A DNA stretch of 64,000 bases from Clostridiales bacterium (GTDB lineage Bacteria > Bacillota > Clostridia > TANB77 > CAG-508): assembly GCA_015056485.1 (NCBI GenBank), contig SVGD01000005.1:19799-83798 (forward strand), written 5' to 3'. The notes under the pieces are model-generated. The model saw only the letters and a program-made list of their open reading frames with translations. It made no database searches and was not told the origin of the DNA. Shown in pieces: positions 1,484 through 60,837 of this stretch; within the stretch, counting starts at the first letter, position 1; each line of letters begins with the position of its first letter. Position numbers and translations under genes: made by a program.

Positions 1484-1507
1484 GTGGGGCGACCATTGGT
1501 CGTCCGC
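1484..1507. repeat. REP-like GC-rich hairpin unit (GTGGGGCGACCATTGGTCGTCCGC) followed by a T-run; likely valS terminator
   Basis: Same unit as at 22377 and 22508. Stem GGCGACC/GGTCGTCC followed by TTTTTTT. Confidence 0.7.
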
Positions 1508-1596
1508 TTTTTTTACTCCAACTACCAAATTCCATGTGATATTGTTCTAAAACCAATTTTTCAGAATATATTTAGCAATAAAGGAGATGATATTTA

Positions 1597-1995
1597 ATGT
1601 TTAATATAGGTAAGGAAGAGAATGATTTTAGTAATTTTAATTTTATAAATATACTTAAAGCAACAGGTGTTGCAATAGTGTTTACAATTATTTTATTATT
1701 CATTTATTCAATAATTTTAACTTATACAAACACACCAGAAGCAAGTATACCAACAGTGATAATTATAATAACCGGAATAAGTATATTAATTGCAAGTCAA
1801 ATGGCAACAAGAAAGTTAAAGAAAAATGGAATTATTAATGGGGGAGTAGTTGGATTAATATACATATTAGGTATATATTTGATTTCAAGTATAATAACAG
1901 GTAATTTTGGTTTTGATTTACAATCAATAATTATGTGCATTACAAGCATTTTAGTAGGTTGTTTAGGCGGAATTATAGGTATAAATATGAAATAG
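1597..1995 (+). CDS. Small integral membrane protein (4 predicted TM segments; TIGR04086/YrzE-like)
   Basis: 132-aa hydrophobic ORF with GGAG RBS 8 nt upstream of the ATG. Confidence 0.6.
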   Translation: MFNIGKEENDFSNFNFINILKATGVAIVFTIILLFIYSIILTYTNTPEASIPTVIIIITGISILIASQMATRKLKKNGIINGGVVGLIYILGIYLISSIITGNFGFDLQSIIMCITSILVGCLGGIIGINMK

Positions 1996-2081
1996 TAAAA
2001 TTTATAAAAAAACATATTGATATTTAAAATTTTTTAATATAGAATAGTTAAAGTATAATTTATAAGAGTGGAGGAATTATA

Positions 2082-3434
2082 GTGAAAACTTATGAAAAAA
2101 TAACAATAGTAACAATTGTGTTATCTATAGTAGTTCTAGTGCTTGCTGCATTTTTTGGCGTATATGTATTAAAAACTTTTAAGGTATCAAATATAATACC
2201 AGATTATAAATTTGGAATGGAATTTGACGAGAAACGAATTGCAAAATATGAAGTAGATAATTCTATAAAAGAAAGTATAATATATGATAGTGAAGGAAAC
2301 TTAGTTGAACAAGAAGAAGGGATAGAATATACTGAAGAAGATGGATATAAAACAGTAGATATAATGATGAATGATGAATCAGTATTAACAATAGAAAATT
2401 ATAAAAAATCTAAAGAATTGTTTAAAACAAAATTATCATCTCTTGGTGCATCTCAATATTCAATAAAATTAAATGAGAACAACGGAGAAATAAGAGTTGA
2501 AATTCCAGAAGATGATAATACAGATTATATTTTAGGTAATTTAGGACAAACTGGTGATTTTTCAATAACAGATTATCAAACAGGAGAAGTTTTATTAAAT
2601 AATGAAAATTTAGATTTTGCTAATGTAACTTATGGGGCAGGAGAGGATTTGAACTCAACAGTTGTATATCTATATTTACAGTTTGACGAAGAAGGAACAA
2701 GAAGATTAAAAGATATTACTTCAACATATGTTGACAGTGAAGATGAAGAAAATGGTAAATATGTAAATGTAGTAATTAATGGACAAACATATTTAGAAAA
2801 AAATTCATTTCCAGAAGAATATTCAGATGGGAAATTATATTTAACTTTTGGAACTTCACAGGATTCAGATACAATACAAGAATATATTGATAGTGCTACA
2901 GCAATTGCTAATAATTTAAATGCAGGAGTTAATCCAATAGTTTATAATTATATATCAGAAACGAAAGAAGCTACAATTGATAATGATTTATTAAACATAA
3001 CATTATATATATTTATAGCTTTAAATGTTATAAGTTTTGTTTATTTTATAATTAAATTTAAAAAAGAAGGATTTATGGCTGCACTATTGCAATTAGGATA
3101 TATTGCTGTATTATCACTAGTGTTACGAGTTTTAGGTATTACACTTACAATAGAAGGTATAATTGGTATAATAGTTTCTATTATTTTAAATTATATGTTT
3201 ATTTGCATGGCTTATAATTCAGAGAGAACAACGAAAAAATTTATAAAAGAAATATTTACTACATTTGCATTAAGAACAATTCCAATGTATATAATTGCTA
3301 TAATATTTACTTTTACAGGACTATTGCATACAAGCAGTTTAGGTATGACTTTAGTGTGGGGAATAATTACAATATATTTATATAATATTATTTTTACAAA
3401 TATAGTATTAAAACTTGTAAAAAAGGAGGCTTAA
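2082..3434 (+). CDS. Divergent SecD-like membrane protein
   Basis: GTG start after GGAGG. N-terminal TM, large extracytoplasmic domain and C-terminal TM bundle. LGITLTIEGIIGIIVSI parallels SecD GATLTLPGIAGIILSIG, but the following GMAVDANV motif is not conserved. Confidence 0.5.
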   Translation: MKTYEKITIVTIVLSIVVLVLAAFFGVYVLKTFKVSNIIPDYKFGMEFDEKRIAKYEVDNSIKESIIYDSEGNLVEQEEGIEYTEEDGYKTVDIMMNDESVLTIENYKKSKELFKTKLSSLGASQYSIKLNENNGEIRVEIPEDDNTDYILGNLGQTGDFSITDYQTGEVLLNNENLDFANVTYGAGEDLNSTVVYLYLQFDEEGTRRLKDITSTYVDSEDEENGKYVNVVINGQTYLEKNSFPEEYSDGKLYLTFGTSQDSDTIQEYIDSATAIANNLNAGVNPIVYNYISETKEATIDNDLLNITLYIFIALNVISFVYFIIKFKKEGFMAALLQLGYIAVLSLVLRVLGITLTIEGIIGIIVSIILNYMFICMAYNSERTTKKFIKEIFTTFALRTIPMYIIAIIFTFTGLLHTSSLGMTLVWGIITIYLYNIIFTNIVLKLVKKEA

Positions 3435-3435
3435 A

Positions 3436-4059
3436 ATGTTAAAAAATAAGAAGATAGTTTTTTCATTAATAGTTGTTGTTGCAATAACAATTTGGGGTGT
3501 AATATCAATAGTAACAAAAGGATTTGATTATTCATTAGAATATAGTGCAAACACAGAAATGGAAATTGCAACAGGAATTAAAGATATACAAACAAATGCA
3601 ATAAAAGAAATTGTAGATTCAATTCTTCAAAATGAAAATAGTATGGTACAAGTAAATGATGAAAATGTGTATATAATTTCAAAAAATATTTCTGAAGAGC
3701 AACAATCTGAGATTTTAAGTAAAATAAATGAGAAATATTCAATAAATGCAACTAAAGAAGAGATAACAGTAAATGAAAATATGGTAATAGATTATTGGGA
3801 TATTGTATATAGATATATATCACCAATTATAATAGTAACAGTAATTATATTAATATATTTTGGAATAAAATATAGAAAACAAAATTGGATAAAGGTAATA
3901 GGAATAAGTTTAGGTACATTAATAATTCTTGAATTACTTGCTATTAGTATTATAGCTATAGTGAGAATACCATTAAGCATATATACAATACCAGTATTAC
4001 TAGGACTATATCTATTAACAATTTTAGTGTTAACATATATATTTGAAAAAAATAAATAG
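3436..4059 (+). CDS. Membrane protein in the SecF position (weak similarity)
   Basis: Start 2 nt after the SecD-like stop. N-terminal TM, soluble domain and C-terminal TM segments. SecF motifs not recognisable. Confidence 0.35.
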   Translation: MLKNKKIVFSLIVVVAITIWGVISIVTKGFDYSLEYSANTEMEIATGIKDIQTNAIKEIVDSILQNENSMVQVNDENVYIISKNISEEQQSEILSKINEKYSINATKEEITVNENMVIDYWDIVYRYISPIIIVTVIILIYFGIKYRKQNWIKVIGISLGTLIILELLAISIIAIVRIPLSIYTIPVLLGLYLLTILVLTYIFEKNK

Positions 4060-4138
4060 TAACAAAAAACAAAAATCTCTAATAAAATATATTAGAGATT
4101 TTTTTATTAGGAATGTTTAAATAAATTTAATTTTATAT

Positions 4139-4220
4139 GTAGGGGCAGACGTCTTACCCCAAGGGCATGTGATATCCGTAACCTCATTATATTCGGACGG
4201 CTATCCGAACGGCTGCCCTA
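4139..4220. repeat. Long GTAG-headed GC-rich repeat element (same family as 53811..53893)
   Basis: GTAGGGGCAGACG...ACCCCAAGGGCATGTGATATCCGTA...CCGAACGGCTGCCCTA. It shares ACCCCAAGGGCATGTG and CCGAACGGC blocks with the copy between rpmC and rpsQ. Confidence 0.75.
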
Positions 4221-4275
4221 TAATTGAATGTGAAAATTCTTATAAAAGAATAAATTTACTATCGGAGATGACTGT

Positions 4276-5512: not shown

Positions 5513-5561
5513 GTAGGGGCAGGTCTTGACCTGCCCAGCGTCGGTCAAGACCGACCCCTAC
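5513..5561. repeat. REP doublet (REPIN-like): GTAGGGG-hairpin / hairpin-CCCCTAC
   Basis: GTAGGGGCAGGTCTTGACCTGCCC AGC GTCGGTCAAGACCGACCCCTAC. Two GC-rich palindromes in inverted orientation. Confidence 0.8.
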
Positions 5562-7047: not shown

Positions 7048-7164
7048 GAAGTGAGAAGTGGGATGTGAGAAGTGTGAAAAATAGGGTAAACTCTACGAAG
7101 AATAACTCTAAAATCGCACCTCGCACCTCGCACCTCGCACCTCGCACTTCACACCTCACACTTC
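7048..7164. repeat. Heptamer-repeat hairpin (GAAGTGR x4 ... CRCACYT x7)
   Basis: Left arm GAAGTGAGAAGTGGGATGTGAGAAGTGTGA. Right arm CGCACCT x4, CGCACTT, CACACCT, CACACTT. Lies downstream of nadE. Confidence 0.75.
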
Positions 7165-20605: not shown

Positions 20606-20611
20606 ATAAGT

Positions 20612-22333
20612 TTACAACTCAAATCTAGGATTAAATTCTTCAAGCCACATATTTAATTGAATTAAATATGCCATAAGTTGAGGGCCAGTCATTAATTGAC
20701 CAAACCATGGTTTTGAAAAGTTTTTACCATCAGTATTTAATATTTCAAAAACATAATCGTCATTAATTAAATTATGGATAGGTGATGATTTGTTTTCCAT
20801 TATTTCTAGTAACATATTTTTTACAACTTTTAAGTAAGTTGGATTATGTGTTTTAGGATATGGACTTTTTTTTCTTTCTATTATTTCTTTAGGAAGTAAT
20901 TTGTTCTTATCCATAATTAATCTTAATAATCCCTTTTCTCTACCATTTAAGGCTTTCATTTCCCAAGGAATATTCCATACATATTCTACCAACTTATAAT
21001 CGCAGAAAGGAACTCTAATTTCCAAACCATTACTCATTCTTTCAGCTCTATCTAAAAGTGTTTGCATAAACCAATTAAATGTTAAATGAGAGATTTTTCT
21101 AGAACGTTTAGTACTTTCAGAGTCATTATTTAAAAAAATAACTTCTGAAAGACTTTCATTATATCTATAATCAATATACTCTTTTAAATCTAGTTTTTTA
21201 CTTATTTCTGGATTTAAAATGTTTTGTCTTTCCAATGTTGCTAATGACCATGGAAAAGTATTAGAAGTTAATGAATTTTCATTAAAAAACCAAGGATATC
21301 CTCCAAAAACTTCATCAGCACATTCTCCAGAAAATGTGATAGGACATTCTTTTTTTATCTCTTTGCAAAAAAGAAGTAAAGAAGAATCTACATCTGCCAT
21401 TCCTGGATATCCTCTTAATAACATAGCTTCTTTTAAAGCTTTAGCAAGTTCAGGAGTATCTATAATAAATTTTTTATGAGATGTTTTATAGGTTTTTCTC
21501 ATAATGTCTATATAATAGTTATCTGAATTTGGTTGAAATTCACTTTTAACGAAATGCTTATCATTATCTAAGTAATCTACGGAAAAAGTTTTTAAAGGCA
21601 AGCAATTATTTTTTTCAATATTTTTATATGCATAGGCTGTCATTATGCTAGAATCTAATCCACCAGAGAGCATAGTACAAATGTTTTTTTCGTCTCCTAG
21701 TTGCTTATTGATGGCAGACTCCAATAGATAGGCAACATGAGCACAAGTAGTATCTAAATCATCTTGATGTTCTTTACTATCAAGTTTCCAATACTTATTA
21801 AAATGAATATCATTTTTATTAAATATTGAATAATGAGCAGGTTTTAATTCAAACACATCTTTAAAAGTGGTGAAACCAGGAGTGTGAGCGGGGCCAATTC
21901 CAAATATTTCTCCAATACTTTGTTCATTTAATATTGGAGTTAAATGAAATTCATCCAAAAGATTTTTTATACTTGAAGAAAAATATAAAACACGGTTTTC
22001 CATATAATAGTATAAAGGTTTTACTCCAAAATGGTCACGTGCTAAGAATAATTCTTCTTTCTTAGTATCCCAAATTGCAATAGAAAAAACTCCATCTAAA
22101 TAATTAACAATATCATAACCATATAAAATAAATAATTTTACTAGAATTTCTTCATCACTATTTGATTCTAACTTAAAATTGCTTTCAGTAAGAATATTTT
22201 TCAAATTAGTTTTATTATATAATCTACCTCTAAAAATAATAAAATATTTATTTGAAGAATAATTTATTTCAATAGATTCTTTAAAAAAACATTTATCATT
22301 TGCTTTAAAATCAACATAACCAGTAATAAACAT
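20612..22333 (-). CDS. asnB: Asparagine synthase (AsnB family) lacking the N-terminal catalytic Cys
   Basis: 573 aa. PP-loop MLSGGLDSSIM. The N-terminus reads MFITGYV where glutamine-hydrolysing AsnB has MCGI. Confidence 0.85.
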   Translation of the reverse strand: MFITGYVDFKANDKCFFKESIEINYSSNKYFIIFRGRLYNKTNLKNILTESNFKLESNSDEEILVKLFILYGYDIVNYLDGVFSIAIWDTKKEELFLARDHFGVKPLYYYMENRVLYFSSSIKNLLDEFHLTPILNEQSIGEIFGIGPAHTPGFTTFKDVFELKPAHYSIFNKNDIHFNKYWKLDSKEHQDDLDTTCAHVAYLLESAINKQLGDEKNICTMLSGGLDSSIMTAYAYKNIEKNNCLPLKTFSVDYLDNDKHFVKSEFQPNSDNYYIDIMRKTYKTSHKKFIIDTPELAKALKEAMLLRGYPGMADVDSSLLLFCKEIKKECPITFSGECADEVFGGYPWFFNENSLTSNTFPWSLATLERQNILNPEISKKLDLKEYIDYRYNESLSEVIFLNNDSESTKRSRKISHLTFNWFMQTLLDRAERMSNGLEIRVPFCDYKLVEYVWNIPWEMKALNGREKGLLRLIMDKNKLLPKEIIERKKSPYPKTHNPTYLKVVKNMLLEIMENKSSPIHNLINDDYVFEILNTDGKNFSKPWFGQLMTGPQLMAYLIQLNMWLEEFNPRFEL

Positions 22334-22370
22334 ACACCTCCAAAATATTTATATCAATAAATTTGTTGCA

Positions 22371-22537
22371 AACGTTGTAGGGGCGACCATTGGTCGTCCG
22401 CTCTTCGAAGAAATCTCTATTAATGCAAAATTAATAAATATAAAAATTTAAATTATAGAATAAAACAGCAAACATAAATTTATTATTTTAGGTATTCTTA
22501 TAAAGCACGGACGACCAATGGTCGCCCCTACAACGTT
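22371..22537. repeat. REPIN/MITE-like element: two inverted REP units flanking ~105 bp AT-rich DNA
   Basis: AACGTTGTAGGGGCGACCATTGGTCGTCCG ... CGGACGACCAATGGTCGCCCCTACAACGTT. Confidence 0.8.
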
Positions 22538-22600
22538 TAAAATAAATATTAATCATTTAACAATATTATATGAAAAAATAAAAAAATGTTGCAATTTTAT

Positions 22601-22629
22601 TTGACAACAATTATAAGTTATGGTAAAAT
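22601..22629 (+). promoter_or_regulatory. rplU operon promoter
   Basis: TTGACA, 17 nt with TGG, TAAAAT. Confidence 0.6.
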
Positions 22630-22635
22630 ATTCAT

Positions 22636-22738
22636 CTGTAAGCCGCATAAGTCGGGTTTTAAAGCTTATTTATATAATAAGCTACCTAGATTTTAATCTT
22701 AGCGAGTATTTAAAAGAAAGTGGAGGTGCTTCCAAAGT
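22636..22738 (+). promoter_or_regulatory. Structured 5' leader of rplU (possible L21-leader type)
   Basis: ~100 nt between promoter and RBS, with hairpins (AAGCTTATTTATATAATAAGCT). Firmicute rplU operons commonly carry an L21 leader. The motif was not verified. Confidence 0.35.
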
Positions 22739-23095
22739 ATGTACGCAATAGTTGAAGCTTGTGGAAAGCAATATAAAGTAGAAAAAGGAGACGTAGTATT
22801 TTTTGAAAAATTAGATACTGATGAAGGAAAAAAAATTACATTTGATAAAGTAGTTTTAGTATCTGATGAAAAAGATACTAAAATTGGAAATCCTTATGTA
22901 AAAGGTGTAAAAGTAGAAGGAAAAGTTGTTTCTCATGGTAAAGCTAAAAAAATTATAGTGTTCAAAATGAAACCTAAAAAGAATGAAAGAAAGAAACAAG
23001 GACATAGACAACCTTATACAAAAGTTGAAATAACAGCTATTAAAACTGCTAGTGAAAAGAAAGAAACAGCAGCTAAAAAAGAAGAAACAAAATAA
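22739..23095 (+). CDS. rplU: 50S ribosomal protein L21 (Lys-rich C-terminal tail)
   Basis: [25 protein letters not shown]. Confidence 0.95.
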
Positions 23096-23142
23096 GGTTA
23101 TAGAGAAAATTAAAAAAAGAATTTCAAGAGAGGTGAAAATAA

Positions 23143-23403: not shown

Positions 23404-23467
23404 TAAATTAAAACTCTTCAAGAAATTGGAGAGTTTTTTTATATAAAAGTTTGTTTTTTGATATGTT

Positions 23468-23545: not shown

Positions 23546-23630
23546 TATAATTAAAGGTCGCATTTTATAGTTGTAATAACTCAAAAAATACGATATAATA
23601 TATAAATGAATTTTGGAAGGGGAAATTTTT

Positions 23631-45892: not shown

Positions 45893-45918
45893 GTAGGGGC
45901 GGGCCTTGTGTCTGCCCG
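45893..45918. repeat. Single REP-like unit
   Basis: GTAGGGGCGGGCCTTGTGTCTGCCCG. Confidence 0.65.
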
Positions 45919-45952
45919 TGTGATTTAATATTAAATAATAATTATATAAATT

Positions 45953-46032
45953 AAGCTAAAATAATTAATTTTTGAAAATGAAATCTCATTTGTCAAAAAT
46001 TAATTATTTTAGCTTCTTAAATTTTGCTGAAA
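45953..46032. repeat. AT-rich 85-bp palindromic element, copy 2 (copy 1 at 27313..27393)
   Basis: AAGCTAAAATAATTAATTTTTGAAAATGA...TCATTTGTCAAAAATTAATTATTTTAGCTT, nearly identical to the copy inside the 27249 element. Confidence 0.75.
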
Positions 46033-49756: not shown

Positions 49757-50380
49757 ATGCCTAGTATAGACGTATATAATATAGAAGGTAAAAAGGTTAG
49801 CACAATAGATTTAAAAGAAGAAATCTTTGGAATTAAACCAAATGAAGCTGTTGTACATTCAGCATTAGTAAACTATATGGCTAATCAAAGACAAGGTACA
49901 GGAAATACAAAAACAAGAGCAGAAGTTTCTGGTGGTGGAAGAAAACCTTGGAGACAAAAAGGGACAGGTAGAGCAAGACAAGGAAGTATAAGAGCACCAC
50001 AATGGTATAAAGGTGGTATTGCTTTAGGACCAAAACCAAGAGATTTCAGATATACAATAAATAAAAAAGAAAGAAGATTAGCAATAAAATCAGTATTAAG
50101 TTCAAAAGTAATTGAAAACAATTTAGTTGTTGTTGATAAATTAGCTTTTGATGAAATAAAAACTAAAAACATGGTAAATGCATTAACAAACTTAAAAGTA
50201 GAAGGAAAAACTTTAATCGTTTTACCAGAAAAAAATGAAAATGTACAAAAATCTGCAAGAAACATTAAAGGAGTAAAAACAAGTTTAGTTAATACAATAA
50301 ATGTTTATGATTTATTAAAATATAACAAATTAGTTGTAACAGTTGATACTGTAAAAAGTTTAGAGGAGGTGTATGCTTAA
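49757..50380 (+). CDS. rplD: 50S ribosomal protein L4
   Basis: GGGRKPWRQKGTGRARQGSIRAPQW. Confidence 0.95.
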   Translation: MPSIDVYNIEGKKVSTIDLKEEIFGIKPNEAVVHSALVNYMANQRQGTGNTKTRAEVSGGGRKPWRQKGTGRARQGSIRAPQWYKGGIALGPKPRDFRYTINKKERRLAIKSVLSSKVIENNLVVVDKLAFDEIKTKNMVNALTNLKVEGKTLIVLPEKNENVQKSARNIKGVKTSLVNTINVYDLLKYNKLVVTVDTVKSLEEVYA

Positions 50381-50728
50381 ATGAGACCAGAAGATATTAT
50401 AATAAAACCTATAATAACAGAAAAAAGTAATGATGGATTACAAAGTGGAAAATACACCTTTAAAGTAGCAAAAAATGCTACAAAAATTCAAATTGCAAAC
50501 AGTGTTGAAGCTTTATTCGGAGTAAAAGTATTAAGCGTTAACACAATGATTGTTAAAGGAAAAGAAAAAACAGTTGGAAGAAATACAGGAAAAAGACCTG
50601 ATTGGAAAAAAGCTATAGTTACTATAGATATGAATCCAGCTGAAGAAACATATTTAACAAAAGGTGCAAAAGAAGTTAAATCTGACAAAAAATATAAAAC
50701 ATCTATAGATGAATTCATGGGAGCATAA
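50381..50728 (+). CDS. rplW: 50S ribosomal protein L23
   Basis: [10 protein letters not shown]...KYTFKV. 115 aa with a C-terminal tail. Confidence 0.9.
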
Positions 50729-50959
50729 GAGCTTCACAAAAAAATTATCCAGAATAAACTGGGAAAATAAAAAAATATCTGCAATGCGGAGCAGGAAAAA
50801 ATCCGTAAATTTAAAAAAGAAAGAGAGGAAGAAACTTTCAAAAACGAGTATTGCTAGGAAGATGAGAAAATATTTTTGAGACTATACATTTGTATGTCGA
50901 AAAAATATTTATGAAATCTGACAACGCAAGACGAAGTTTTTCAAAGGTTCGAAGTAAAA
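50729..50959. repeat. 231-nt spacer inside the S10 operon with an imperfect long inverted repeat
   Basis: Arms GAAACTTTCAAAAACGAG... and ...CGAAGTTTTTCAAAGGTTC around centre ATACATTTGTAT. rplW and rplB are normally adjacent. Confidence 0.5.
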
Positions 50960-51787
50960 ATGGGAATAAAACATTTTAGAGCATATACACCATCAAGAAG
51001 AAATATGACTGTTTCTAGCTTTGATGAAATAACAAAAAAGACACCTGAAAAATCTTTATTAGCAAAGAAAAAGAAAAATGCAGGTAGAAACTCATATGGA
51101 AGAATAACAGTTAGACATCAAGGAGGAGGAAACAGACAAAAATATAGAATTATTGATTTTAAACGTAAAAAAGACGATATGAAAGCTACAGTAATCGGTA
51201 TAGAATATGATCCAAACCGTTCAAGTAATATAGCTTTAATCCAATATGAAGATGGAGAAAAAGCATATATATTAGCACCTGTAGGATTAAAAGATGGAGA
51301 TACAGTTGTATCAGGAAAAGATTCTGATATAAGAGTAGGAAATTGTTTACCTATCGAAAATATACCAGTTGGTACTGTAATTCATAATATAGAATTAAAT
51401 CCAGGTCAAGGTGGAAAAATGGTTAGAACAGCCGGAGGAGAAGCTCAACTTATGGCTAAAGAAGGAAAATATGCACACGTAAGACTTCCTTCAGGAGAAA
51501 TGAGATTAGTTTTAGCAAGATGTAGAGCAACAATAGGAACAATAGGAAATGCAGATCATAGCAATATAAAAATAGGTAAAGCTGGAAGAAAAAGACATAT
51601 GGGTATTAGACCAACAGTTAGAGGTTCTGTTATGAACCCAGTAGATCACCCTCATGGTGGTGGTGAAGGTAGAGCACCTGTAGGACATCCAGGACCACTT
51701 ACTCCTTGGGGTAAACCAGCATTAGGATATAAGACAAGAAAGAAAAACAAAGCATCAAACAAATTTATCGTAAAGAGAAGAAAATAA
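50960..51787 (+). CDS. rplB: 50S ribosomal protein L2
   Basis: [17 protein letters not shown]...HPHGGGEGR. Confidence 0.95.
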
Positions 51788-51804
51788 GAAGGAGGAAATA
51801 AATA

Positions 51805-52083
51805 ATGTCAAGATCAAGTAAGAAAAAACCTTTTGTGCAAGAAAAACTTCTTAAAAGAATAGAAGCTATGAATGCGACAGGTGAAAAAAGTGTTCTAAAA
51901 ACATGGTCAAGAGCATCAACAATTTACCCACAAATGGTAGGACACACAATAGCAGTTCATGATGGAAGAAAACATGTTCCTATTTACATAGCTGAAGAAA
52001 TGATAGGACATAAATTAGGTGAATTTGCTCCAACAAGAACATTTAAAGGTCATGCTGGAGAAAAGAAAAGCTCAGTTAAATAA
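51805..52083 (+). CDS. rpsS: 30S ribosomal protein S19
   Basis: [10 protein letters not shown]...[12 protein letters not shown]. Confidence 0.95.
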
Positions 52084-52137
52084 GAAATGAGAATAAATAT
52101 AAGTAAAAAAAGCGAATAATTGAAGGAGGTAAATACA

Positions 52138-52491
52138 ATGCCAGAAGAAACTACAACATTAGAAGCAAAAGCAATTTTAAGATTTGCTAGAATTTCAAGT
52201 AGAAAAGTTAAAATTGTAGCAGATTTAATAAGAGGAAAAAATGTAGATGAAGCTTTAGCAATTGTAAAATTCACACCAAAAGCATCATCAATAATAATTG
52301 AAAAATTATTAAAATCAGCTATTGCAAATGCAGAAAACAATCATGGTATGAATAGAGGTAACTTAGTAATAAGTGAAATTTATGCAACTCAAGGACCTAC
52401 ATTAAAAAGAATAAGACCAGCAGCAAAAGGTTCTGCAAACAGAATTAGAAAAAGAACAAGTCATATAACTATAAAACTAAGAGAAGTTTAA
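52138..52491 (+). CDS. rplV: 50S ribosomal protein L22
   Basis: ATG 52138 after [33 protein letters not shown]. Confidence 0.95.
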
Positions 52492-52508
52492 AAGGAGGAA
52501 AAATAAGC

Positions 52509-53171
52509 ATGGGACAAAAAATGCATCCACATGGATTAAGAGTTGGTGTAATCAAAGATTGGAGTTCAAAATGGTATGCTGATTCTAAAAACTTTGGTGA
52601 TTATTTAGTAGAAGACCACAAAATCCGTGAATATGTTAAGAAAAAATTATTTGTTAGTGGTATTTCAAAAGTTGAAATTGAAAGAACTGCAAAATTTGTA
52701 AAAGTTAATGTATATACTGCAAAACCTGGATTAGTAATAGGTAAAGGCGGAAATTATGCAGAAACATTAAAAAGTGAATTAGTAAAAATGATAGGAAAAG
52801 AAGTAAACTTAAATATAGTTGAAGTTAAAAATGTTGATACAGATGCACAATTAGTTGCAGAAAACATTTGTAACCAACTAGAAAGAAGAATTTCTTTCAG
52901 AAGAGCAATGAAACAATGTATGCAAAAAGCAATGAAATCAGGTGCTTTAGGAATAAAAACTGCAGTATCTGGAAGATTAGGTGGAGCTGATATGGCTAGA
53001 ACAGAATTCTATAAAGAAGGAACAATTCCACTTCAAACTTTAAGAGCAGATATTGATTATGGATTCTATGAAGCAAATACAACTTATGGAAAAATAGGTG
53101 TAAAAGTTTGGATTTATAAAGGAGAGATTCTTCCTACTAAAAATATTAAAACAGAAGGAGGAGAAGAATAA
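52509..53171 (+). CDS. rpsC: 30S ribosomal protein S3
   Basis: [24 protein letters not shown]. Confidence 0.95.
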
Positions 53172-53596
53172 TGCCAGTAATGCCAAAAAGAACAAAATAC
53201 AGAAAAATGCAAAAAGGTAGAAATAGAGGAAAAGCTACAAGAGGTAATGTGGTAAATGAAGGAGAATACGGACTTCAAGCTATAGAAGCAGGATTAGTTA
53301 CTGCAAATCAAATTGAATCTGCTCGTATAGCTATGACACGTTATATAAAAAGAGGTGGTAAAGTTTGGATTAAATTATTCCCAAACAAACCAATTAGTAA
53401 GAAACCAGCCGAAACTCGTATGGGTAAAGGTAAAGGTGCTACAGAATATTGGGTAGCAGTTGTTAAACCAGGAAGAGTTATGTTTGAAATAGCTGGAGTT
53501 CCAGAAGAAACAGCTAGAGAAGCATTAAGATTAGCTTCACATAAATTACCTGTAAAAACAAAATTTTTAGCAAGAGATAATAAGGTGGTGGAATAG
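53171..53596 (+). CDS. rplP: 50S ribosomal protein L16
   Basis: [17 protein letters not shown]. Confidence 0.95.
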
Positions 53597-53800
53597 ATGA
53601 AGATAAGTAAAATAAGAGAGATGTCTTCACCAGACTTAGAAAAAGAATTAGGCGAATTAAAAACAGAATTGTTTAAATTAAGATTTAGCCTAGCAGCTCA
53701 TGGATTAGAAAATCCAATGAAAATAAAAGAAGTGAAGAAAGATATAGCAAGAATAAATACAGTTCTTAGACAAAGAGAACTAGAAGCAAGTAAAAAATAA
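53597..53800 (+). CDS. rpmC: 50S ribosomal protein L29
   Basis: [25 protein letters not shown]. Confidence 0.95.
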
Positions 53801-53810
53801 AAAGTGCGTT

Positions 53811-53893
53811 GTAGGGGTCGACGCCCTACCCCAAGGGCATGTGTTATCTGTAGTTCACTATCGTTCACACAGCTAACCGAACGGCGACCCGTA
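53811..53893. repeat. Long GTAG-headed GC-rich repeat inserted between rpmC and rpsQ
   Basis: GTAGGGGTCGACGCCCTACCCCAAGGGCATGTGTTATCTGTA...CCGAACGGCGACCCGTA. Paralog of 4139..4220. Confidence 0.75.
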
Positions 53894-53933
53894 AAAAATG
53901 CGTAACCTTACAATAAGAAGGAGGAAAATATCA

Positions 53934-54197
53934 ATGGAAGAAAGAAATCTTCGTAAAGTTATGATTGGTACAGTTACATCTAATAAAATGGATAAAACAA
54001 TAGTTGTATCAGTTAAAACAAACGTAAAACATCCAATATATGGTAAAATCGTAAAGAAAACATATAAATTAAAAGCACATGATGAAAACAACGAATGCCA
54101 AATTGGAGATAAAGTAAAAGTAATGGAAACTAGACCACTTTCAAGAGATAAAAGATGGAGATTAGTTGAAATTGTTGAAAAGGCAGACATAAAATAA
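53934..54197 (+). CDS. rpsQ: 30S ribosomal protein S17
   Basis: ATG 53934 after [26 protein letters not shown]. Confidence 0.95.
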
Positions 54198-54318
54198 GAA
54201 AGATAAAATTAGTAACCTATAGTTTATAGGTAAAGGTAATATTCACTAAAAAAATAGTGAATAGTGAATAATATAAAATTTACTATTCGCAAATTTCGAA
54301 TAAGGAGGAAAACTAAAA

Positions 54319-54687
54319 ATGATACAACAACAATCAAGATTAAAAGTTGCAGATAATACTGGAGCAAAAGAACTTATGTGTATCAGATGTTTAGGTGGTT
54401 CACATAGAAAATTTGCAGGTGTTGGAGATGTTATTATTGCATCTGTAAAAAGTGCAATACCAAATGGAGTTGTAAAAAAAGGTGATGTAGTTAAAGCTGT
54501 TATAGTAAGAACTAAGAAACCAATAGGAAGACCAGATGGTTCTTATGTTAGATTTGATGAAAATGCAGCTGTTATAATACGTGATGATGGTAATCCAAAA
54601 GGAACACGTATATTTGGACCTATAGCAAGAGAATTGAGAGATAAAGATTATATGAAGATTTTATCATTAGCCCCAGAAGTATTATAG
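54319..54687 (+). CDS. rplN: 50S ribosomal protein L14
   Basis: [22 protein letters not shown]. Confidence 0.95.
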
Positions 54688-54690
54688 GCG

Positions 54691-54809
54691 ACTAATGAAA
54701 AACGGCATCTTACGTCGTTAAAATTTAAAATAATATCCTCAACGTGCAAGCGCACGCCTCCGGTATTAATTTTAAATTTTGCCTAGTAATCTACCATTTT
54801 TGATTAGTC
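54691..54809 (+). repeat. ~120-nt three-tier hairpin element, copy 2 (inside spc operon)
   Basis: ACTAATGAAAAACGGCATCTTACGTCG...GTGCAAGCGCAC...CCATTTTTGATTAGT. Confidence 0.7.
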
Positions 54810-54848
54810 TAGGCTAAAAGATATAGACCAAATAGAGAGGTGAAATAA

Positions 54849-55157
54849 ATGAAAATTAAAAAAGGTGATACAGTTGAAGTTTTATCTGGAAACGATAAAG
54901 GTAAAAAAGGTGAAGTTTTAGAAACAATGCCAAAAACAGATAAAATAATTGTAAAAGGTATAAATTTAAGAAAAAAACATGTTAAACCAAGAAAACAAGG
55001 TGACGAAGGTGGAATCATTGAAGTTGAATGTAGTATACCAAGTTGCAAAGTAAATGTAGTATGCCCAAAATGTAATGCTGCTACAAAAACAAAAATCGAA
55101 GTTGAAAAAGATGGAAAAGTTCGTATTTGTAAAAAATGTGGAGCTAAAATAAAATAG
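54849..55157 (+). CDS. rplX: 50S ribosomal protein L24 with C-terminal CxxC...CxxC motif
   Basis: MKIKKGDTVEVLSGNDKGKKGEV (KOW). C-terminus CPKCNAATKTKIEVEKDGKVRICKKCG. Confidence 0.9.
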   Translation: MKIKKGDTVEVLSGNDKGKKGEVLETMPKTDKIIVKGINLRKKHVKPRKQGDEGGIIEVECSIPSCKVNVVCPKCNAATKTKIEVEKDGKVRICKKCGAKIK

Positions 55158-55178
55158 AGAGGAGGACTAAAACTAGTT

Positions 55179-55718
55179 ATGGAAACATTACAAGAACAAT
55201 ATAAAAAAGAAGTTATACCTGCATTAATGAAAAAATTTGAATATAAATCAGTTATGCAAGTACCAAAACTAGAAAAAATAGTTATAAATATAGGATTAGG
55301 AGATATTAAAGATAATCCAAAATCATTAGATAATGCAATAAATGATTTAACACTTATAACAGGTCAAAAACCAGTTATAACAAAAGCAAGAAAATCAATT
55401 GCTGCATTTAAATTAAGAGAAGGTTCTAACGTTGGATGTAAAGTTACATTAAGAGCAAATAAAATGTATGATTTTGCTAACAAATTATTTAACTTAGCAC
55501 TTCCTAGAGTTAGAGATTTCAGAGGAGTTTCAAAAAACTCATTTGATGGACATGGAAATTATTCATTAGGAATTAAAGAACAATTAATATTCCCAGAAAT
55601 CGAATATGATAAAATTGATAAATTAAGAGGAATGGATATTATATTTGTTACTACAGCAAATTCAGATGAAGAAGCAAAAGAGTTATTAACATTGCTAGGA
55701 ATGCCTTTTAGAGCATAA
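55179..55718 (+). CDS. rplE: 50S ribosomal protein L5
   Basis: [18 protein letters not shown]. Confidence 0.95.
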
Positions 55719-55755
55719 TCTGAATAAAAATGAATAAAAAGGAGGAAACAAATTC

Positions 55756-55941
55756 ATGGCTAAAAAAGCAATGGTTGTTAAACAACAAAAAGAGCAAAAA
55801 TATAAGACTAGAGAATATAATAGATGTAAACTTTGTGGAAGACCACATGGATATATAAGAAAATTTGGAATTTGCCGTATTTGCTTTAGAGAATTAGCTC
55901 ATAAAGGTGAGATACCAGGAGTAAAAAAAGCAAGCTGGTAA
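55756..55941 (+). CDS. rpsN: 30S ribosomal protein S14 type Z (zinc-binding, 61 aa)
   Basis: [23 protein letters not shown]. Confidence 0.95.
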
Positions 55942-55943
55942 TG

Positions 55944-56067
55944 AAAGAGGTGAGAGGTGAGATGTTAGAGGTGGGAAACCAATTAACATTAAACCTTAGA
56001 TAAAATATTAAGAAGAAGTTAGATGTTTAGTTGAGAGTACAAGTTCTCATTTCTCACATCTCACTTC
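55944..56067. repeat. Heptamer-repeat hairpin inside the spc operon
   Basis: GAGGTGA GAGGTGA GATGTTA GAGGTGG ... TCTCATT TCTCACA TCTCACT. Confidence 0.75.
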
Positions 56068-56096
56068 ATATAAGTGAAAAGGAGGAAAAGATATAA

Positions 56097-56495
56097 ATGA
56101 ACACTACTGATCCAATAGCAGATATGCTAACAAGAATTAGAAATGCAAATAGTGAAAAAATAAAAACTGTAGATATACCTGCATCTAACATGAAAAAATC
56201 TATAGCAGAAATTTTATTTAGTGAAGGATATATCAAATCTTATGAAGAGATAAGTACAGAAAATCAAGGAATTATTAGAATAAGCCTAAAATATACAGAA
56301 AAAGGACAAAAAGTAATTTCTGGATTAAAAAGAATAAGCAAACCAGGATTAAGAATATATGCATCTAAAGATGAATTACCAAAAGTATTAAATGGATTAG
56401 GAATAGCTTTAATATCAACATCAAAAGGTATAGTTACAGATAAAAAAGCAAGAGAATTAGGCGTTGGTGGAGAAGTATTAGCATACATATGGTAA
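56097..56495 (+). CDS. rpsH: 30S ribosomal protein S8
   Basis: [14 protein letters not shown]. Confidence 0.95.
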
Positions 56496-56559
56496 TTAAA
56501 CTTGCATAAGCAAGAATTAAGAAATAATAGTATAGAGATATTTTAGAAAGGAGAAAAAT

Positions 56560-57096
56560 ATGTCAAGAATAGGAAATAAACCAATTACAGTTCCAGAAGG
56601 CGTAGAGGTTAAAATAGAAGGTCAAAAAGTTACTGTAAAAGGAACAAAAGGAACATTAGAAAAAGTAATGCATGAAAACATGAAAATAACATTAGAAAAT
56701 AATGTTATAACAGTAACAAGACCAAACGATGAACCTTTAAATAGAAGCTTACATGGATTAACAAGAACATTAATCAACAATATGATTGAAGGTGTTTCTA
56801 AAGAATTCAGTAAAGAATTACAAATAAATGGTGTAGGATATAGAGCATCTAAACAAGGAAAAACTTTAGTACTTAACTTAGGTTATTCACATCCTGTAAA
56901 AATGGATGAACCAGAAGGAATTACTTTTGATGTTCCAAATGCTAACCAAATTATAGTAAGAGGTATAGATAAAGAATTAGTAGGACAAATGGCAGCAGTT
57001 ATAAGAACAAAAAGACCTCCTGAAGTATATAGAGGAAAAGGTATTAAATATGCTGATGAACATATTAGACGTAAAGTAGGTAAAACAGGTAAATAA
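56560..57096 (+). CDS. rplF: 50S ribosomal protein L6
   Basis: [17 protein letters not shown]. Confidence 0.95.
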
Positions 57097-57138
57097 AAAA
57101 TGAATAATTAAAAAATATAGAAAGGAGATTATTCTAGA

Positions 57139-57498
57139 ATGATTACTAAAACAAATAGAGATTTAGAAAGAACAAGAAGACATAAAAGAGTTCGTACAAA
57201 AATAAGTGGTACAGCAGAATGTCCAAGACTATGTGTTTATAGAAGTAATGCAAATTTATATGCTCAAATAATTGATGATACTGAAGGTAAAACTTTAGTA
57301 AGTGCTTCTACATTAGATAAAGAAGTAAAAACAAAAAAATCAAATAAAGAAGCTGCAAAAGAAGTTGGTGCTTTAGTAGCAAAAAGAGCTATAGAAAAAA
57401 ATATAAAAACAGTAGTTTATGATAGAGGTGGATACGTTTATCATGGTATTGTAAAAGAATTAGCAGATGCTGCAAGAGAAGCAGGATTAGTATTTTAA
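57139..57498 (+). CDS. rplR: 50S ribosomal protein L18
   Basis: [30 protein letters not shown]. Confidence 0.95.
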
Positions 57499-57538
57499 TA
57501 ATAATATAACATTTTAGAAGGAGGGAAAAGATAACTAA

Positions 57539-58027
57539 ATGGAAGAACAATCAGTAGAATTAAAAGAGAAAGTTGTAGCTATTAACAGAGTTGCAAAAGT
57601 TGTTAAAGGTGGTAGAAATTTCAGATTTAGTGCTGTAGTTGTTGTTGGAGACGAAAATGGTCATGTAGGTATAGGAAATGGAAAAGCAGCTGAAGTTCCA
57701 GATGCTATAAAAAAAGCTATAGAAAATGCTAAGAAAAACTTAATAGAAGTACCTATTGTTGGAACAACAATACCACACGAATATATAGGAACATTTGGTT
57801 CTGCAAGCGTATTATTAAAACCAGGAGCAGAAGGTTCTGGACTTATTGCAGGAGGAAGTGTAAGACCAATATTAGAATTAGCTGGATATAGAGATATAAA
57901 AACAAAAATAATTGGAACAAACAATCCAAGAAATGTTGGTTATGCAACAATAAATGCATTAGAAAATATGGCAACAGCAGAACAAATTGCTAAAAAAAGA
58001 GGAAAAAAAGTTGAAGAAATAGTTTAA
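57539..58027 (+). CDS. rpsE: 30S ribosomal protein S5
   Basis: [27 protein letters not shown]. Confidence 0.95.
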
Positions 58028-58082
58028 TTTAAACTTTAGCTATAGAATTCGTAAGATTAATTTTGAAGGAGGGGAAACATAA

Positions 58083-58517
58083 ATGGAATTAGGTAATATA
58101 AAAGCTTCACAAGAAAGAACTGCAAAAAGAAGAGTAGGTCGTGGAACTGGATCTGGTTTAGGAAAAACATCTGGTAGAGGACATAAAGGTCAAAAAGCAA
58201 GATCAGGTGGAGGAGTTAGACGTGGATTCGAAGGAGGTCAAACACCTTTATATAGAAGATTACCAAAAAGAGGATTTAAAAATATAAATTCTAAAACATA
58301 TACAGAAGTAACTTTAACAATGCTTAACAAATCAAAAGCAGAAGAAGTTACAGCTGAATCTTTAATTGCAGAAAGAATAATAAGAAAAGCTAATGACGGA
58401 ATAGTTATATTAGGAACAGGAAGTTTAGATAAAAAATTAACTGTTAAAGCTAATAGATTTACTGCAACAGCAAAAGAAAAAATTGAAGCCGTTGGTGGAA
58501 AAGTAGAGGTGATATAG
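58083..58517 (+). CDS. rplO: 50S ribosomal protein L15 (no rpmD/L30 gene precedes it)
   Basis: [28 protein letters not shown]. Only 55 nt separate it from rpsE. Confidence 0.95.
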
Positions 58518-58518
58518 A

Positions 58519-59856
58519 GTGTTTAAAACAATAAAAAATGCTTTAAAAACTCCAGACATAAGAAAAAGATTAATGTATACATTATTATTAATTGTCATTT
58601 TTAGATTCGGATGTCATATAACTGTACCTGGTGTTGATAGTTTAGCATTAGGGGAACTAGCTAAACAATCAACTCAGAGTATAGCAGGTTTTATAGATTT
58701 AATATCTGGTGGGGCATTTTCAAATTTTTCTATATTTGCAATGTCAATATCACCATATATTACAGCATCAATTGTAATTCAATTATTAGGAATGGTAATT
58801 CCTTCTTTAGAAAAGCTTGTTAAAGAAGGAGGAGAAGAAGGTAAAGCTAAAATAAATAAATATACTAAAATTCTTACTTTAGTTCTTGCTTTAGTAGAAT
58901 CTATAGGAATTTATTTATCATACAGCAATAGCTACTCAGCTTTTGGAGTATTTATAAATCCTGGATTTAAAACAGGAATGTTAGTTGTACTTTCTTTAGT
59001 AGCTGGAACAGCATTTTTAATGTGGCTAGGTGAACAAATTACTAACAAAGGTATAGGTAATGGAATCTCAATGCTTATATTTGTTGGTATAATTGCTTCA
59101 CTTCCAGATGCGTTAAGAACACTTTATGGATTAGTTACAGCAGGAGGATTTAATACAGCAGGATTCTTAATAGCATTAGCAATTCTTGTAGGTGCTTTTG
59201 CACTAGTTGCAGCAGTTGTTTTTGTACAACAAGCTGAAAGAAGAGTTCCTGTTCAATATGCAAAAAAAGTAGTTGGAAGAAAAATGTATGGAGGACAAAA
59301 TACACATATTCCACTAAAATTAGCTATGGCAGGAGTTATACCAGTTATTTTTGCATCATCATTTTTAACATTCCCAGCAATGATTATTTCAATGTTTAAT
59401 GCAAATATAGCTTCAGAAACAGGATTTTGGTCAGTAATATATAAATTCTCAATGGCAACATCAACATCTCAAGGTATTCATTGGGGATATACAATTGCAA
59501 ATGCTATAGTATATTTATTATTGATTTTAGGATTTACATTCTTCTATACATATGCAACATTTAATCCTGCAGAAGTATCAAATAATATAAAGAAAAATGG
59601 AGGATTTATACCAGGAATAAGAGCTGGAAAGCCTACTACTGAATATATATCTTCTATTTTAGGGAAGTTAACTTGGTTTGGAGGTTTATTCCTAAGTGCA
59701 ATAGCTATTCTTCCAATGTTAATGAGATTTACACCTATAGAAGGATTAACTTTTGGAGGAACATCTATACTTATTGTTGTAGGTGTTGCATTAGAAACAA
59801 TACAACAATTAGAATCAAGATTAGTTATGAGACATTATAAAGGATTTTTAGAGTAA
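58519..59856 (+). CDS. secY: Preprotein translocase subunit SecY
   Basis: GTG start. 445 aa, 10 TM. GISPYITASIVIQLL-like ISPYITASIVIQLLG. Confidence 0.95.
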   Translation: MFKTIKNALKTPDIRKRLMYTLLLIVIFRFGCHITVPGVDSLALGELAKQSTQSIAGFIDLISGGAFSNFSIFAMSISPYITASIVIQLLGMVIPSLEKLVKEGGEEGKAKINKYTKILTLVLALVESIGIYLSYSNSYSAFGVFINPGFKTGMLVVLSLVAGTAFLMWLGEQITNKGIGNGISMLIFVGIIASLPDALRTLYGLVTAGGFNTAGFLIALAILVGAFALVAAVVFVQQAERRVPVQYAKKVVGRKMYGGQNTHIPLKLAMAGVIPVIFASSFLTFPAMIISMFNANIASETGFWSVIYKFSMATSTSQGIHWGYTIANAIVYLLLILGFTFFYTYATFNPAEVSNNIKKNGGFIPGIRAGKPTTEYISSILGKLTWFGGLFLSAIAILPMLMRFTPIEGLTFGGTSILIVVGVALETIQQLESRLVMRHYKGFLE

Positions 59857-59978
59857 AACGAATGAAAAGCGGTGTCTTGCACATTTTGAATTGCAACAAA
59901 AATTTTTCGATGTATAAACATACACCTGCAAATTTTATGTTGCATTCAAAATGCACAATATACCACTTTTGCTTCGTT
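59856..59978 (+). repeat. ~120-nt three-tier hairpin element, copy 3
   Basis: AAACGAATGAAAAGCGGTGTCTTGCAC...GTATAAACATAC...CCACTTTTGCTTCGTTT. The middle-tier sequence differs from copies 1 and 2 but still pairs. Confidence 0.7.
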
Positions 59979-60000
59979 TTTTATTAATGTAAACAAGAAA

Positions 60001-60068
60001 GTAGGGGTCGCCGCCCTCGGCGACCCGAAAAACAAATTAAACGGGTCGCCGAGGGCGGCGACCCCTAC
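60001..60068. repeat. REP doublet between secY and adk
   Basis: GTAGGGGTCGCCGCCCTCGGCGACCC, 16 nt, GGGTCGCCGAGGGCGGCGACCCCTAC. Confidence 0.8.
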
Positions 60069-60116
60069 AAATGTAAAAATAGAACAGTAGGTTTTATTTC
60101 ATAAGGAGGAAAAAAT

Positions 60117-60761
60117 ATGTATATAGTACTATTAGGAGCACCAGGTAGTGGAAAAGGTACAGCAGGAAAAGTTTTAGCTGAAGATTTAAAATTAGCGCAT
60201 ATATCAACAGGAGATATATTTAGAGAAAATTTAAAAAATGAAACAGAATTAGGTAAAGAAGCTAAAGTTTATATGGACAAAGGTGAATTAGTTCCAGACG
60301 AAGTTACAATAAAAATGATTGAAAAAAGATTACAAGAAGACGATGTAAAAAATGGAGCAATTTTAGATGGATTCCCAAGAACAAAAGCTCAAGCAGAAAG
60401 CTTATCTAACATGATTAAAGTTGATATGGCATTAAATATAGATGTTGACTTTGATGAAATTGTTAGTAGAATTGCAAATAGAAGAAGCTGTAGAGGATGT
60501 AGTGAAATATATAATGTAGTATTTAGTCCTTCAAAAGTAGAAGGAGTATGTGACAAATGTGGTGGAGAACTATATCAAAGAGAAGACCAAAAACCAGAAG
60601 TAGTAGAGAACAGATTAAAAGTATATAGTGAATCAGCACAAGAATTAATAAATTATTATGAAAACTCAGGAATACTTTATAATGCAAAAGCAGGAGATAA
60701 AGTTGGAAAAACAACATACGATGTTGTAAAAGAAGTTGAAGAATACTTAAAAAATAATTAA
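60117..60761 (+). CDS. adk: Adenylate kinase (zinc-lid type)
   Basis: LLGAPGSGKGT P-loop. Lid CRGC...CDKCG. Confidence 0.95.
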   Translation: MYIVLLGAPGSGKGTAGKVLAEDLKLAHISTGDIFRENLKNETELGKEAKVYMDKGELVPDEVTIKMIEKRLQEDDVKNGAILDGFPRTKAQAESLSNMIKVDMALNIDVDFDEIVSRIANRRSCRGCSEIYNVVFSPSKVEGVCDKCGGELYQREDQKPEVVENRLKVYSESAQELINYYENSGILYNAKAGDKVGKTTYDVVKEVEEYLKNN

Positions 60762-60773
60762 ATTAAAAACAAT

Positions 60774-60837
60774 GTAGGGGCTGGTCTTGACCAGACCGAA
60801 TATAAGGATAAACGGGTCGGTCAAGACCGACCCCTAC
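60774..60837. repeat. REP doublet between adk and map
   Basis: GTAGGGGCTGGTCTTGACCAGACC, 17 nt, GGTCGGTCAAGACCGACCCCTAC. Close relative of 5513..5561. Confidence 0.8.

Follow-up and report, generated by a model that had tools for sequence, protein, structure and literature searches.

Short GC-rich palindromes headed by GTAGGGG recur between the genes of an AT-rich clostridial genome, even within its ribosomal protein operon, and raise the question of whether they are mobile repeats or fixed signals of gene expression. The analyzed stretch (the window) comprises 64,000 nt of contig SVGD01000005.1 (positions 19,799 to 83,798, forward strand; assembly GCA_015056485.1) from a Clostridiales bacterium of the CAG-508 lineage. 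A previous reading of the sequence alone (hereafter, the sequence-only reading) interpreted the palindromes as repetitive extragenic palindromic sequences (REPs) and, where doubled and inverted, as REP doublets forming hairpins (REPINs), mobilized by REP-associated tyrosine transposases (RAYTs), with conserved terminators as the alternative. The present analysis supports this interpretation: the units are most probably REPs and REPIN-type doublets of the GTAG superfamily, serviced by a RAYT/TnpAREP nuclease of the HUH-Y1 type (histidine-hydrophobe-histidine motif, single catalytic tyrosine) and of the kind described as subclass 2.4. This assignment is based on the architecture of the units, their over-representation, the covariation of their stems, their presence or absence at orthologous spacers, the existence of a clostridial RAYT family that carries the same REPs, and the conserved recD2-RAYT-recG locus of relatives.

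Abundance, Placement, and Fold of the Units

The heptamer GTAGGGG was found 16 times on the two strands of the window, which has a GC content of 28%, compared with 1.52 copies expected from 100 dinucleotide-preserving shuffles of the same sequence (standard deviation 1.35, maximum 7). All 16 copies are intergenic, and each heads a GC-rich hairpin that takes the form of a singleton, an inverted doublet, or a long form of approximately 84 nt, which confirms the over-representation of GTAG-headed palindromes originally proposed. Together with one GTGGGG-headed copy at 1484, all window units (17/17) are located between open reading frames (ORFs), usually 6-145 nt 3' of a stop codon. The window and its fetched flanks (79 kb) contain 28 GTAGGGG heads in addition to the copy at 1484, or approximately 0.35 per kb; one of the heads in the downstream flank is not followed by a GC-rich hairpin. 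The statement on intergenic location refers to the 17 window units.

The window matches a 286-kb faecal-metagenome contig of the Joint Genome Institute, and the fetched overlaps L001 and L292 (window start) are identical to the window. Gene names in the ribosomal region come from the Pfam-annotated calls of L001 (100% identity with window positions 50117-64000), and these calls place units in the rpmC/rpsQ, secY/adk, and adk/map spacers, as the sequence-only reading had done; its coordinates for the individual sites also held on re-examination. A scan of the window for GC-rich islands recovered the REP places again; the few unrelated islands were tRNAs, a terminator (25910), and a 71-nt palindrome (13919).

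In each unit, the stem directly 3' of GTAG consists of 7-10 GC-rich base pairs and is closed by a loop of 3-4 nt. Three G-C pairs make up the base of the stem, and stems of type A have a conserved G-T mismatch. The window units are thus imperfect GC-rich palindromes of 20-40 nt with an unpaired 5' GT[AG]G foot, which is the definition of a REP. The doublets fold as long hairpins (-20 to -42 kcal/mol, z-scores from -6.7 to -13). At 5513, 60001, and 60774, inverted REPs with a short spacer form one long hairpin, the arrangement characteristic of REPINs; the wide doublets at 22377 and 27249 display a looser REPIN arrangement.

The sequence-only reading described a core that varies under a constant head, and the core does vary: the units fall into stem types A (GCGACC ATT GGTCGT and variants), B (GGTC TTG GACC), and C (GTCGCCGCCC TCGG...), a solitary variant, and the long form, with the sites of each given in Table 1. 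A third copy of the long form lies 5 kb past the window end, making three copies in 79 kb. Some generalizations required correction. The GTAGGGG head is kept at 16 copies but not at 1484, where the A is missing. The inverted doublets have outward heads with the exception of the pair at 23466-23496 (-) and 23518-23546 (+), which is head-to-head. The form of the unit is not uniform either, since 4139 and 53811 represent the distinct long form and 27249 is a double-foot unit.

The repetitive nature of the units is also visible in raw metagenomes. Logan unitigs from metagenomes containing the organism end at the REPs, and the word depth at REP-bearing bins is elevated approximately 3- to 35-fold, with the peak at 27209-27475, a bin that also holds an unrelated AT-rich repeat. 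Divergent metagenome runs over 20000-28000 yielded copy-number spikes only and are noisy with respect to site-level polymorphism, since unitigs break at repeats.

Presence and Absence at Orthologous Spacers

Orthologous ribosomal-operon loci were gathered via Adk homologues with 99, 94, 86, and 81% Adk identity. Over 19.5 kb, the DNA of the locus with 99% Adk identity (L299) matches that of the window at 95.9% identity, and hence differences in REP content between the two arise at about the species level. Gains or losses were observed in the secY-adk, adk-map, rpmC-rpsQ, L6-L18, and L18-S5 spacers, which differ among the window, L299, L294, L295, and L297. None of L294, L295, L297, and L299 has the window's secY-adk REPIN. 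L299 does have the adk-map REPIN, but with two substitutions, one of them disrupting the head; in L294 and L295 (94 and 86% Adk identity, respectively) this REPIN is missing, and the spacer of L295 is only 14 bp long. REPs are found in the L6-L18 and L18-S5 spacers of L295 but not of the window, and the rpmC-rpsQ spacer, where the window has the long form, is occupied by a simple REP in L295 and L297 and is free of REPs in L299. Insertion polymorphism, which had been set beforehand as a test of the REP interpretation, is therefore present even in comparison with a strain approximately 96% identical in DNA.

A conserved segment of approximately 150 nt (AAAACAAATCAAAAGCGAGTATTAC...GTGAAGTTTGACAAAGTAAGACGAAGG) was observed upstream of adk in L299 (9810-10000), L295, and L297. 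The same pre-adk position in the window (59990-60116) is taken by the REPIN doublet, which may thus have replaced a leader-like element.

A Clostridial RAYT Family Carrying the Same REPs

RAYT-like ORFs with the motifs MP[ND]HIH, WQKxFYDHVIR, and YIxENP were found beside or around the units in loci that contain the exact type A 21-mer (described below). A PDB search with a profile of these clostridial RAYTs returned one match, the E. coli TnpAREP (4ER8, E 3.7e-12), and NF047646 ("REP-associated tyrosine transposase") is the NCBIfam model that fits them best (E from 1e-17 to 1e-20, compared with 4e-3 for IS200). The clostridial proteins, none of which is encoded in the window, have the HUH, W(Q/E), and YIxxNP motifs of class 2 RAYTs and are nearer to TnpAREP than to TnpA(IS200). 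Their homologues form at least 7,909 clusters at 90% identity and include proteins of the cultured Firmicutes Tepidanaerobacter acetatoxydans, Clostridium aceticum, Soehngenia saccharolytica, and Desulfofalx alkaliphila.

The link between protein and repeat is written into the genes themselves. The type A unit GTA GGG GCG ACC ATT GGT CGT CCG translates as VGATIGRP, a motif present inside RAYT-like proteins, and a second, oppositely oriented REP in the RAYT genes encodes GRPMVAPT. These two in-frame internal REPs are arranged head-out, 187 nt apart, and flank the HUH motif. The same two positions hold other REP variants in other RAYTs (VGANCVRP/GRTQFAPT and VGAHCMC/GHMQCAPT), and the variant inside AT-rich RAYT genes is often repeated just outside the gene. 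When metagenomes were queried with AT-codon versions of MP[ND]HxH followed by CCCCTAC, a RAYT ORF was found in all loci among the matches listed (120/120). An upstream in-frame REP was also present at 53 of 121 HUH plus CCCCTAC sites, and in 33 of those 53 the internal pair shares its first 14 nt, with variants differing between genes. The characters of RAYT subclass 2.4 were all observed, namely in-frame internal REPs, a stem foot of three G-C pairs, and double-foot REPs (27249 in the window and 838-865 in the relative L302). Similarity of the wide-doublet interiors to the RAYT-internal segment was not significant for 22402-22507 and was limited to low-complexity scores for 27274-27446. An unrelated Y1_Tnp gene is located near one of the RAYTs (L306).

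Among AT-rich relatives, L302 (28.5% GC) encodes the strongly AT-biased RAYT P0326, which occurs on 28% GC contigs (L302-L305) and whose gene is AT-rich throughout except for two REP islands. The asd gene of the P0326 contigs and the asd gene adjacent to the window are 77% identical over 111 alignable residues (74% in DNA). The order recD2-RAYT-recG is conserved in L302, L303, L308, and L309, and P0326 and P0358 share this position; such a fixed locus is the behavior of a single-copy, vertically inherited RAYT. RAYT genes that are flanked by or contain matching REPs were observed in L302, in many Clostridia, and in AT-rich metagenome loci, and this cognate family, along with the sequence hallmarks of the units, supports the REP/REPIN assignment originally made. 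We infer that the genome studied here also encodes a RAYT of the subclass 2.4 kind.

The inverted in-frame pair (head GTAGGG = Val-Gly; VGATIGRP...HUH...GRPMVAPT) could be a conserved functional "master REPIN" and not an accidental insertion, an idea that we regard as tentative and rather doubtful. Coding constraint would then tie down the REP sequence, and the enzyme might act on its own gene or mRNA, such self-action serving as autoregulation or providing a seed copy for new REPINs. A master REPIN would explain why one 21-mer is identical across many genera with GC contents of 26-62%, unlike the species-specific REPs of Proteobacteria.

Spread of the Units beyond This Genome

The head-plus-hairpin architecture with covarying stems was found in hundreds of contigs with GC contents between 23 and 70%. 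The pattern GTAGGGGCG-N9-CGTCCG, in which the outer part of type A is fixed, occurs in 59 stretches in IMG/VR, on contigs with 30-71% GC. Almost one-half of the distinct inner 9-mers, which are unconstrained by the pattern (19/39), are perfect 3-bp palindromes representing 9 different stems. Approximately 0.6 would be expected by chance, and this excess demonstrates strong covariation for the hairpin. The exact type A 21-mer (GGGGCGACCATTGGTCGTCCG) is present in more than 107 stretches of GTDB representative genomes with 26-62% GC. Nearly all of the matches listed are gut metagenome-assembled genomes (MAGs) of Clostridia, Oscillospiraceae, Acutalibacteraceae, Faecousia, and Ruminococcus from ruminants, birds, and humans. 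None of the matches listed for the 21-mer (GTDB) and for HUH/CCCCTAC (metagenomes) is demonstrably from the species studied here.

The exact 21-mer, dense GTAGGGG heads, and a RAYT fragment were also observed in an Alphaproteobacteria MAG (L158, 34% GC, with 10 heads in 8 kb) and in a Bacteroidaceae bin (L136), reflecting either mis-binning or cross-phylum spread. Three IMG/VR contigs (L005, L020, and L042; 31-34% GC) contain REP units with a CTCTTCGAAGAAATTAC-like tail, as at 22377 and 15366 in the window, including a tandem array of four units in L042; these contigs may be phages or prophages of this lineage that carry REPs.

Proposed Mechanism and Alternative Explanations

Under the REP/REPIN assignment, the units would be short non-autonomous mobile DNA hairpins residing in intergenic DNA. 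The RAYT would recognize the single-stranded hairpin via the 5' GTAG foot and the stem, and, acting on single-stranded DNA, would cleave and rejoin the top strand at a point adjacent to GTAG, by which REPINs could be copied into new intergenic sites. A secondary RNA role is plausible for the transcribed copies: operon copies may stabilize mRNA 3' ends, and copies with a downstream T-run, such as the one at 1484, may terminate transcription.

Several observations weigh against this assignment. No RAYT was found by local hidden Markov model and tblastn searches in the window plus 15 kb of flanks, which cover approximately 5% of the genome if its size is roughly 1.3-1.6 Mb, as the 1.3-Mb contigs of relatives suggest. 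The RAYT of the relative carries internal REP variants (GCGAACTGTGTTCGC) that differ from those in the window. The clostridial RAYTs score below curated cut-offs, both for Pfam Y1_Tnp (20-22 vs. 23 bits) and for NF047646 (62-71 vs. 80), and therefore databases label these genes merely "transposase". Finally, orientation relative to transcription is weakly biased, with 47 sense and 28 antisense singletons over all loci, as counted with crude ORF calls. Weak RAYT matches in the window (e.g., 22350-22544 at E 0.018) were rejected as spurious, being caused by REP-encoded peptides.

The lack of a RAYT in the 79 kb examined would fit orphan or relic REPs, whose RAYT was lost or never present and which are kept by a structural role in RNA or DNA or serviced in trans by a RAYT that a phage or other element carries. 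We consider this unlikely. The AT-rich "viral" contigs L005, L020, and L042 with the same units and tail would be in line with service by a phage, but none of the RAYT genes was seen in an evident phage context, and the AT-rich relatives keep theirs at a fixed chromosomal locus. E. coli strains that lack a RAYT and still hold REPINs are documented, although REPINs decay after RAYT loss (bioRxiv 10.1101/2021.07.10.451892). The copies studied here are intact, and their 50-70% GC contrasts with the 28% of the genome, in which GC-rich DNA should decay unless selected; they also differ from those of a strain approximately 96% identical in DNA.

A further possibility is that the units are immobile regulatory hairpins (terminators, attenuators, or mRNA-stabilizing stem-loops) that share a GTAG-like foot by chance. 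Most units do lie 6-80 nt 3' of stop codons in co-directional operons, the copy at 1484 has a terminator-like appearance owing to the canonical T-run that follows it, and REPs of E. coli are known to stabilize upstream mRNA (discussed in PMC3733652). However, a T-run follows the hairpin at 1 of 11 sites only, the remaining ten failing the definition of an intrinsic terminator, and the doublet at 22377-22531 is located in a promoter region between divergent genes. The Rfam scan of the window at gathering scores identified five tRNAs only and no family matching the units. As the units are, in addition, present or absent at orthologous spacers of close relatives, and an identical 21-mer occurs in more than 100 genome stretches and inside RAYT coding sequences, this explanation is highly improbable, and the conserved terminators named as the alternative by the sequence-only reading are disfavored with it.

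That the palindromes derive from the ends of IS200/IS605 elements and are mobilized by a classical TnpA(IS200) and not by a RAYT is barely credible: both enzymes share their HUH-Y1 chemistry and their way of recognizing hairpins, the proteins match Pfam Y1_Tnp weakly, and a Y1_Tnp gene lies near the RAYT in L306, but the RAYT model fits far better and TnpAREP is the sole PDB match, the tyrosine motif is the class 2 signature YIxxNP and not YxxxQ, no tnpB partner was found, the gene is single-copy at a fixed locus in relatives, and the GTAG foot is a hallmark of REPs. Integron attC sites and CRISPR repeats were dropped by inspection, there being no R''/R' cores and neither regular spacing nor arrays in the window.

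Relation to Known REP Systems

The REP/REPIN system with RAYT has counterparts in the literature, the nearest of which is RAYT subclass 2.4, described in "various phyla" (Quentin, 2018, PMC6006769) and equivalent to Group 4 of Bertels (PMC5581495). This subclass is characterized in print by a canonical long REP as well as double-foot forms, by three G-C pairs at the foot of the stem, and by REPs that lie within tnpAREP in its reading frame (PMC6006769). The clostridial system shares the GT[AG]G foot directly on a three-G-C stem base, the double-foot forms, the in-frame REPs, the protein motifs (NH[IFV]H, WQ, and YIxNNP-like), and a patchy distribution across phyla. It differs in its hosts, which are gut Clostridia including those with 23-30% GC, whereas those described previously are mostly Cyanobacteria, Bacteroidetes, Chlorobia, and Caldilineae. 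Moreover, the clostridial internal REPs form a fixed inverted pair around HUH that is conserved across thousands of proteins, and one clostridial REP 21-mer is unchanged in many species.

The REPs and bacterial interspersed mosaic elements of E. coli with their TnpAREP (YafM; 4ER8; PMC3479197, PMC8266576) have in common with the units a 5' GTAG, an imperfect GC-rich palindrome, extragenic location, inverted pairs, and an HUH-Y1 nuclease. The E. coli REPs differ in their longer bulged stems, their RAYT (subclass 2.2) is flanked by REPs and does not contain them, and the protein similarity is remote. The REPINs of Pseudomonas fluorescens likewise consist of two inverted REPs with a variable spacer in extragenic DNA (Bertels and Rainey, 2011, PMC3116915); each genome has hundreds of them, serviced by a RAYT that is present in single copy and inherited vertically (PMC3116915). 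Pseudomonas REPINs constitute species- or clade-specific families, whereas clostridial type A is conserved across many genera with 26-62% GC. The GTAG-tagged families surveyed by Di Nocera (2013, PMC3733652) resemble the clostridial units in their tag, stem-loop layout, head-head and tail-tail dimers, position downstream of ORFs, and occasional intragenic in-frame copies. They were listed for Proteobacteria, Cyanobacteria, Chloroflexi, and the PVC group (Planctomycetes, Verrucomicrobia, Chlamydiae), with no family from Firmicutes and no mention of GTAGGGG in the text of the survey. The statement of the sequence-only reading that populations of this kind are known chiefly from Proteobacteria is fair; subclass 2.4, however, had already been placed in various phyla (PMC6006769).

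The new elements are the host group, the scale of the system in gut Clostridia, and the conservation of one REP across genera and GC contents together with the fixed in-frame pair. The REP/REPIN-RAYT system, in the literature mainly one of Proteobacteria and Cyanobacteria, extends to a large group of gut Firmicutes and is very common in uncultured gut Clostridia, whose RAYTs (at least 7,900 clusters) are annotated only as "transposase" or "hypothetical". In practical terms, REPs break short-read assemblies of gut MAGs, as the unitig ends show, and mark strain-level polymorphisms, even within the ribosomal protein operon; as GC-rich islands in AT-rich genomes, they could be mistaken for regulatory RNAs. 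The in-frame REP pair is kept GC-rich in a gene that otherwise has an estimated GC content of approximately 24%, and such a fixed pair offers a clean system for studying the co-evolution of a domesticated transposase and its repeats.

Inventory of the Window Units

Table 1. REP and REPIN-like units in the 64-kb window (window coordinates).
Feature	Coordinates	Strand	Stem type	Remarks
Single REP, degenerate head GTGGGGCGACCATTGGTCGTCCGC	1484-1507	+	A	6 nt 3' of the valS stop codon; then TTTTTTT
Long REP form	4139-4222	+	Long form	Outer stem GGGGCAG.CG/CG.CTGCCC around module TACCCCAAGGGCATGTG...
REPIN-like head-out doublet, GGTCTTGACC core	5513-5561	5513-5536 +, 5538-5561 -	B	-19.8 kcal/mol, z -6.7
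Single REP (GTAGGGGCGATTTTAATCGTCCG), tail TTCTTCGGATAAATTAC	15366-15389	+	A	13 nt 3' of a stop codon
Wide head-out doublet, two type A units	22377-22531	22377-22401 +, 22508-22531 -	A	106 AT-rich nt inside; divergent intergenic region
Head-to-head pair	23466-23546	23466-23496 -, 23518-23546 +	C	
Wide head-out doublet	27249-27473	27249-27278 + (double-foot GTAG...CTAC), 27449-27473 -	A	Unrelated AT-rich palindrome inside
Single REP, imperfect stem (GTAGGGGCGGGCCTTGTGTCTGCCCG)	45893-45920	+	Solitary variant	19 nt 3' of a stop codon
Long REP form, rpmC/rpsQ spacer	53811-53891	+	Long form	
Perfect REPIN-like head-out doublet, secY/adk spacer	60001-60068		C	-42.3 kcal/mol, z = -13
REPIN-like head-out doublet, adk/map spacer	60774-60837		B	

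Other Repeats and Features of the Region

Two features of the ribosomal genes were observed in passing. No rpmD (L30) is present between rpsE (S5) and rplO (L15) at 57539-58517, either in the window lineage or in relatives. In one ENA assembly of the same strain (L002, 3370-3684, compared with window 53609-53731), rpmC contains a 111-bp in-frame tandem duplication and encodes 104 aa instead of 67, which may be an assembly artefact.

The palindrome at 13919-13989 (CAGTGTGTCAGTGGGGCCGGGGCATTTTGACAT...) is near-perfect, GC-rich, and 71 nt long, and it does not belong to the GTAG type. Another palindrome, which is AT-rich (AAGCTAAAATATTAATTTTTGA...TCAAAAATTAATTATTTTAGCTT), is located at 27313-27375 and at about 45950-46010, adjoining two REPs. 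The bin 27209-27475, which includes this palindrome and both REPs of the doublet, has a word depth approximately 35-fold that of flanking sequence in run X10, a value for the palindrome and the REPs combined; the palindrome is possibly a high-copy repeat.

Copies of a second repeat family, approximately 120 nt in length, are found at 27105-27230, 54690-54810, and 59857-59990. Their terminal inverted repeats (AATGAAAAGCGGCATCTTGC ... GCAATATACCACTTTTGNTTNG) are imperfect, and their center is richer in GC. Each copy starts right after a stop codon, two of them directly precede a REP, and further copies were found in ribosomal spacers of relatives (L6-L18 and IF1-L36 in L295). The family has no match in Rfam and could represent a miniature inverted-repeat transposable element or a structured RNA.

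Intergenic hairpins with arms of 2-4 tandem heptamers occur at 55942-56096 (S14-S8), 7114-7148, 26253-26272, 62648-62763 (S13-S11), and 54198-54318 (S17-L14). The heptamer differs by site (GAGGTGA, TCGCACC, CGTGGGA, GTTTGGA, AATAGTG) and the architecture is constant; among L294, L297, and L299, these hairpins are present, absent, or relocated.

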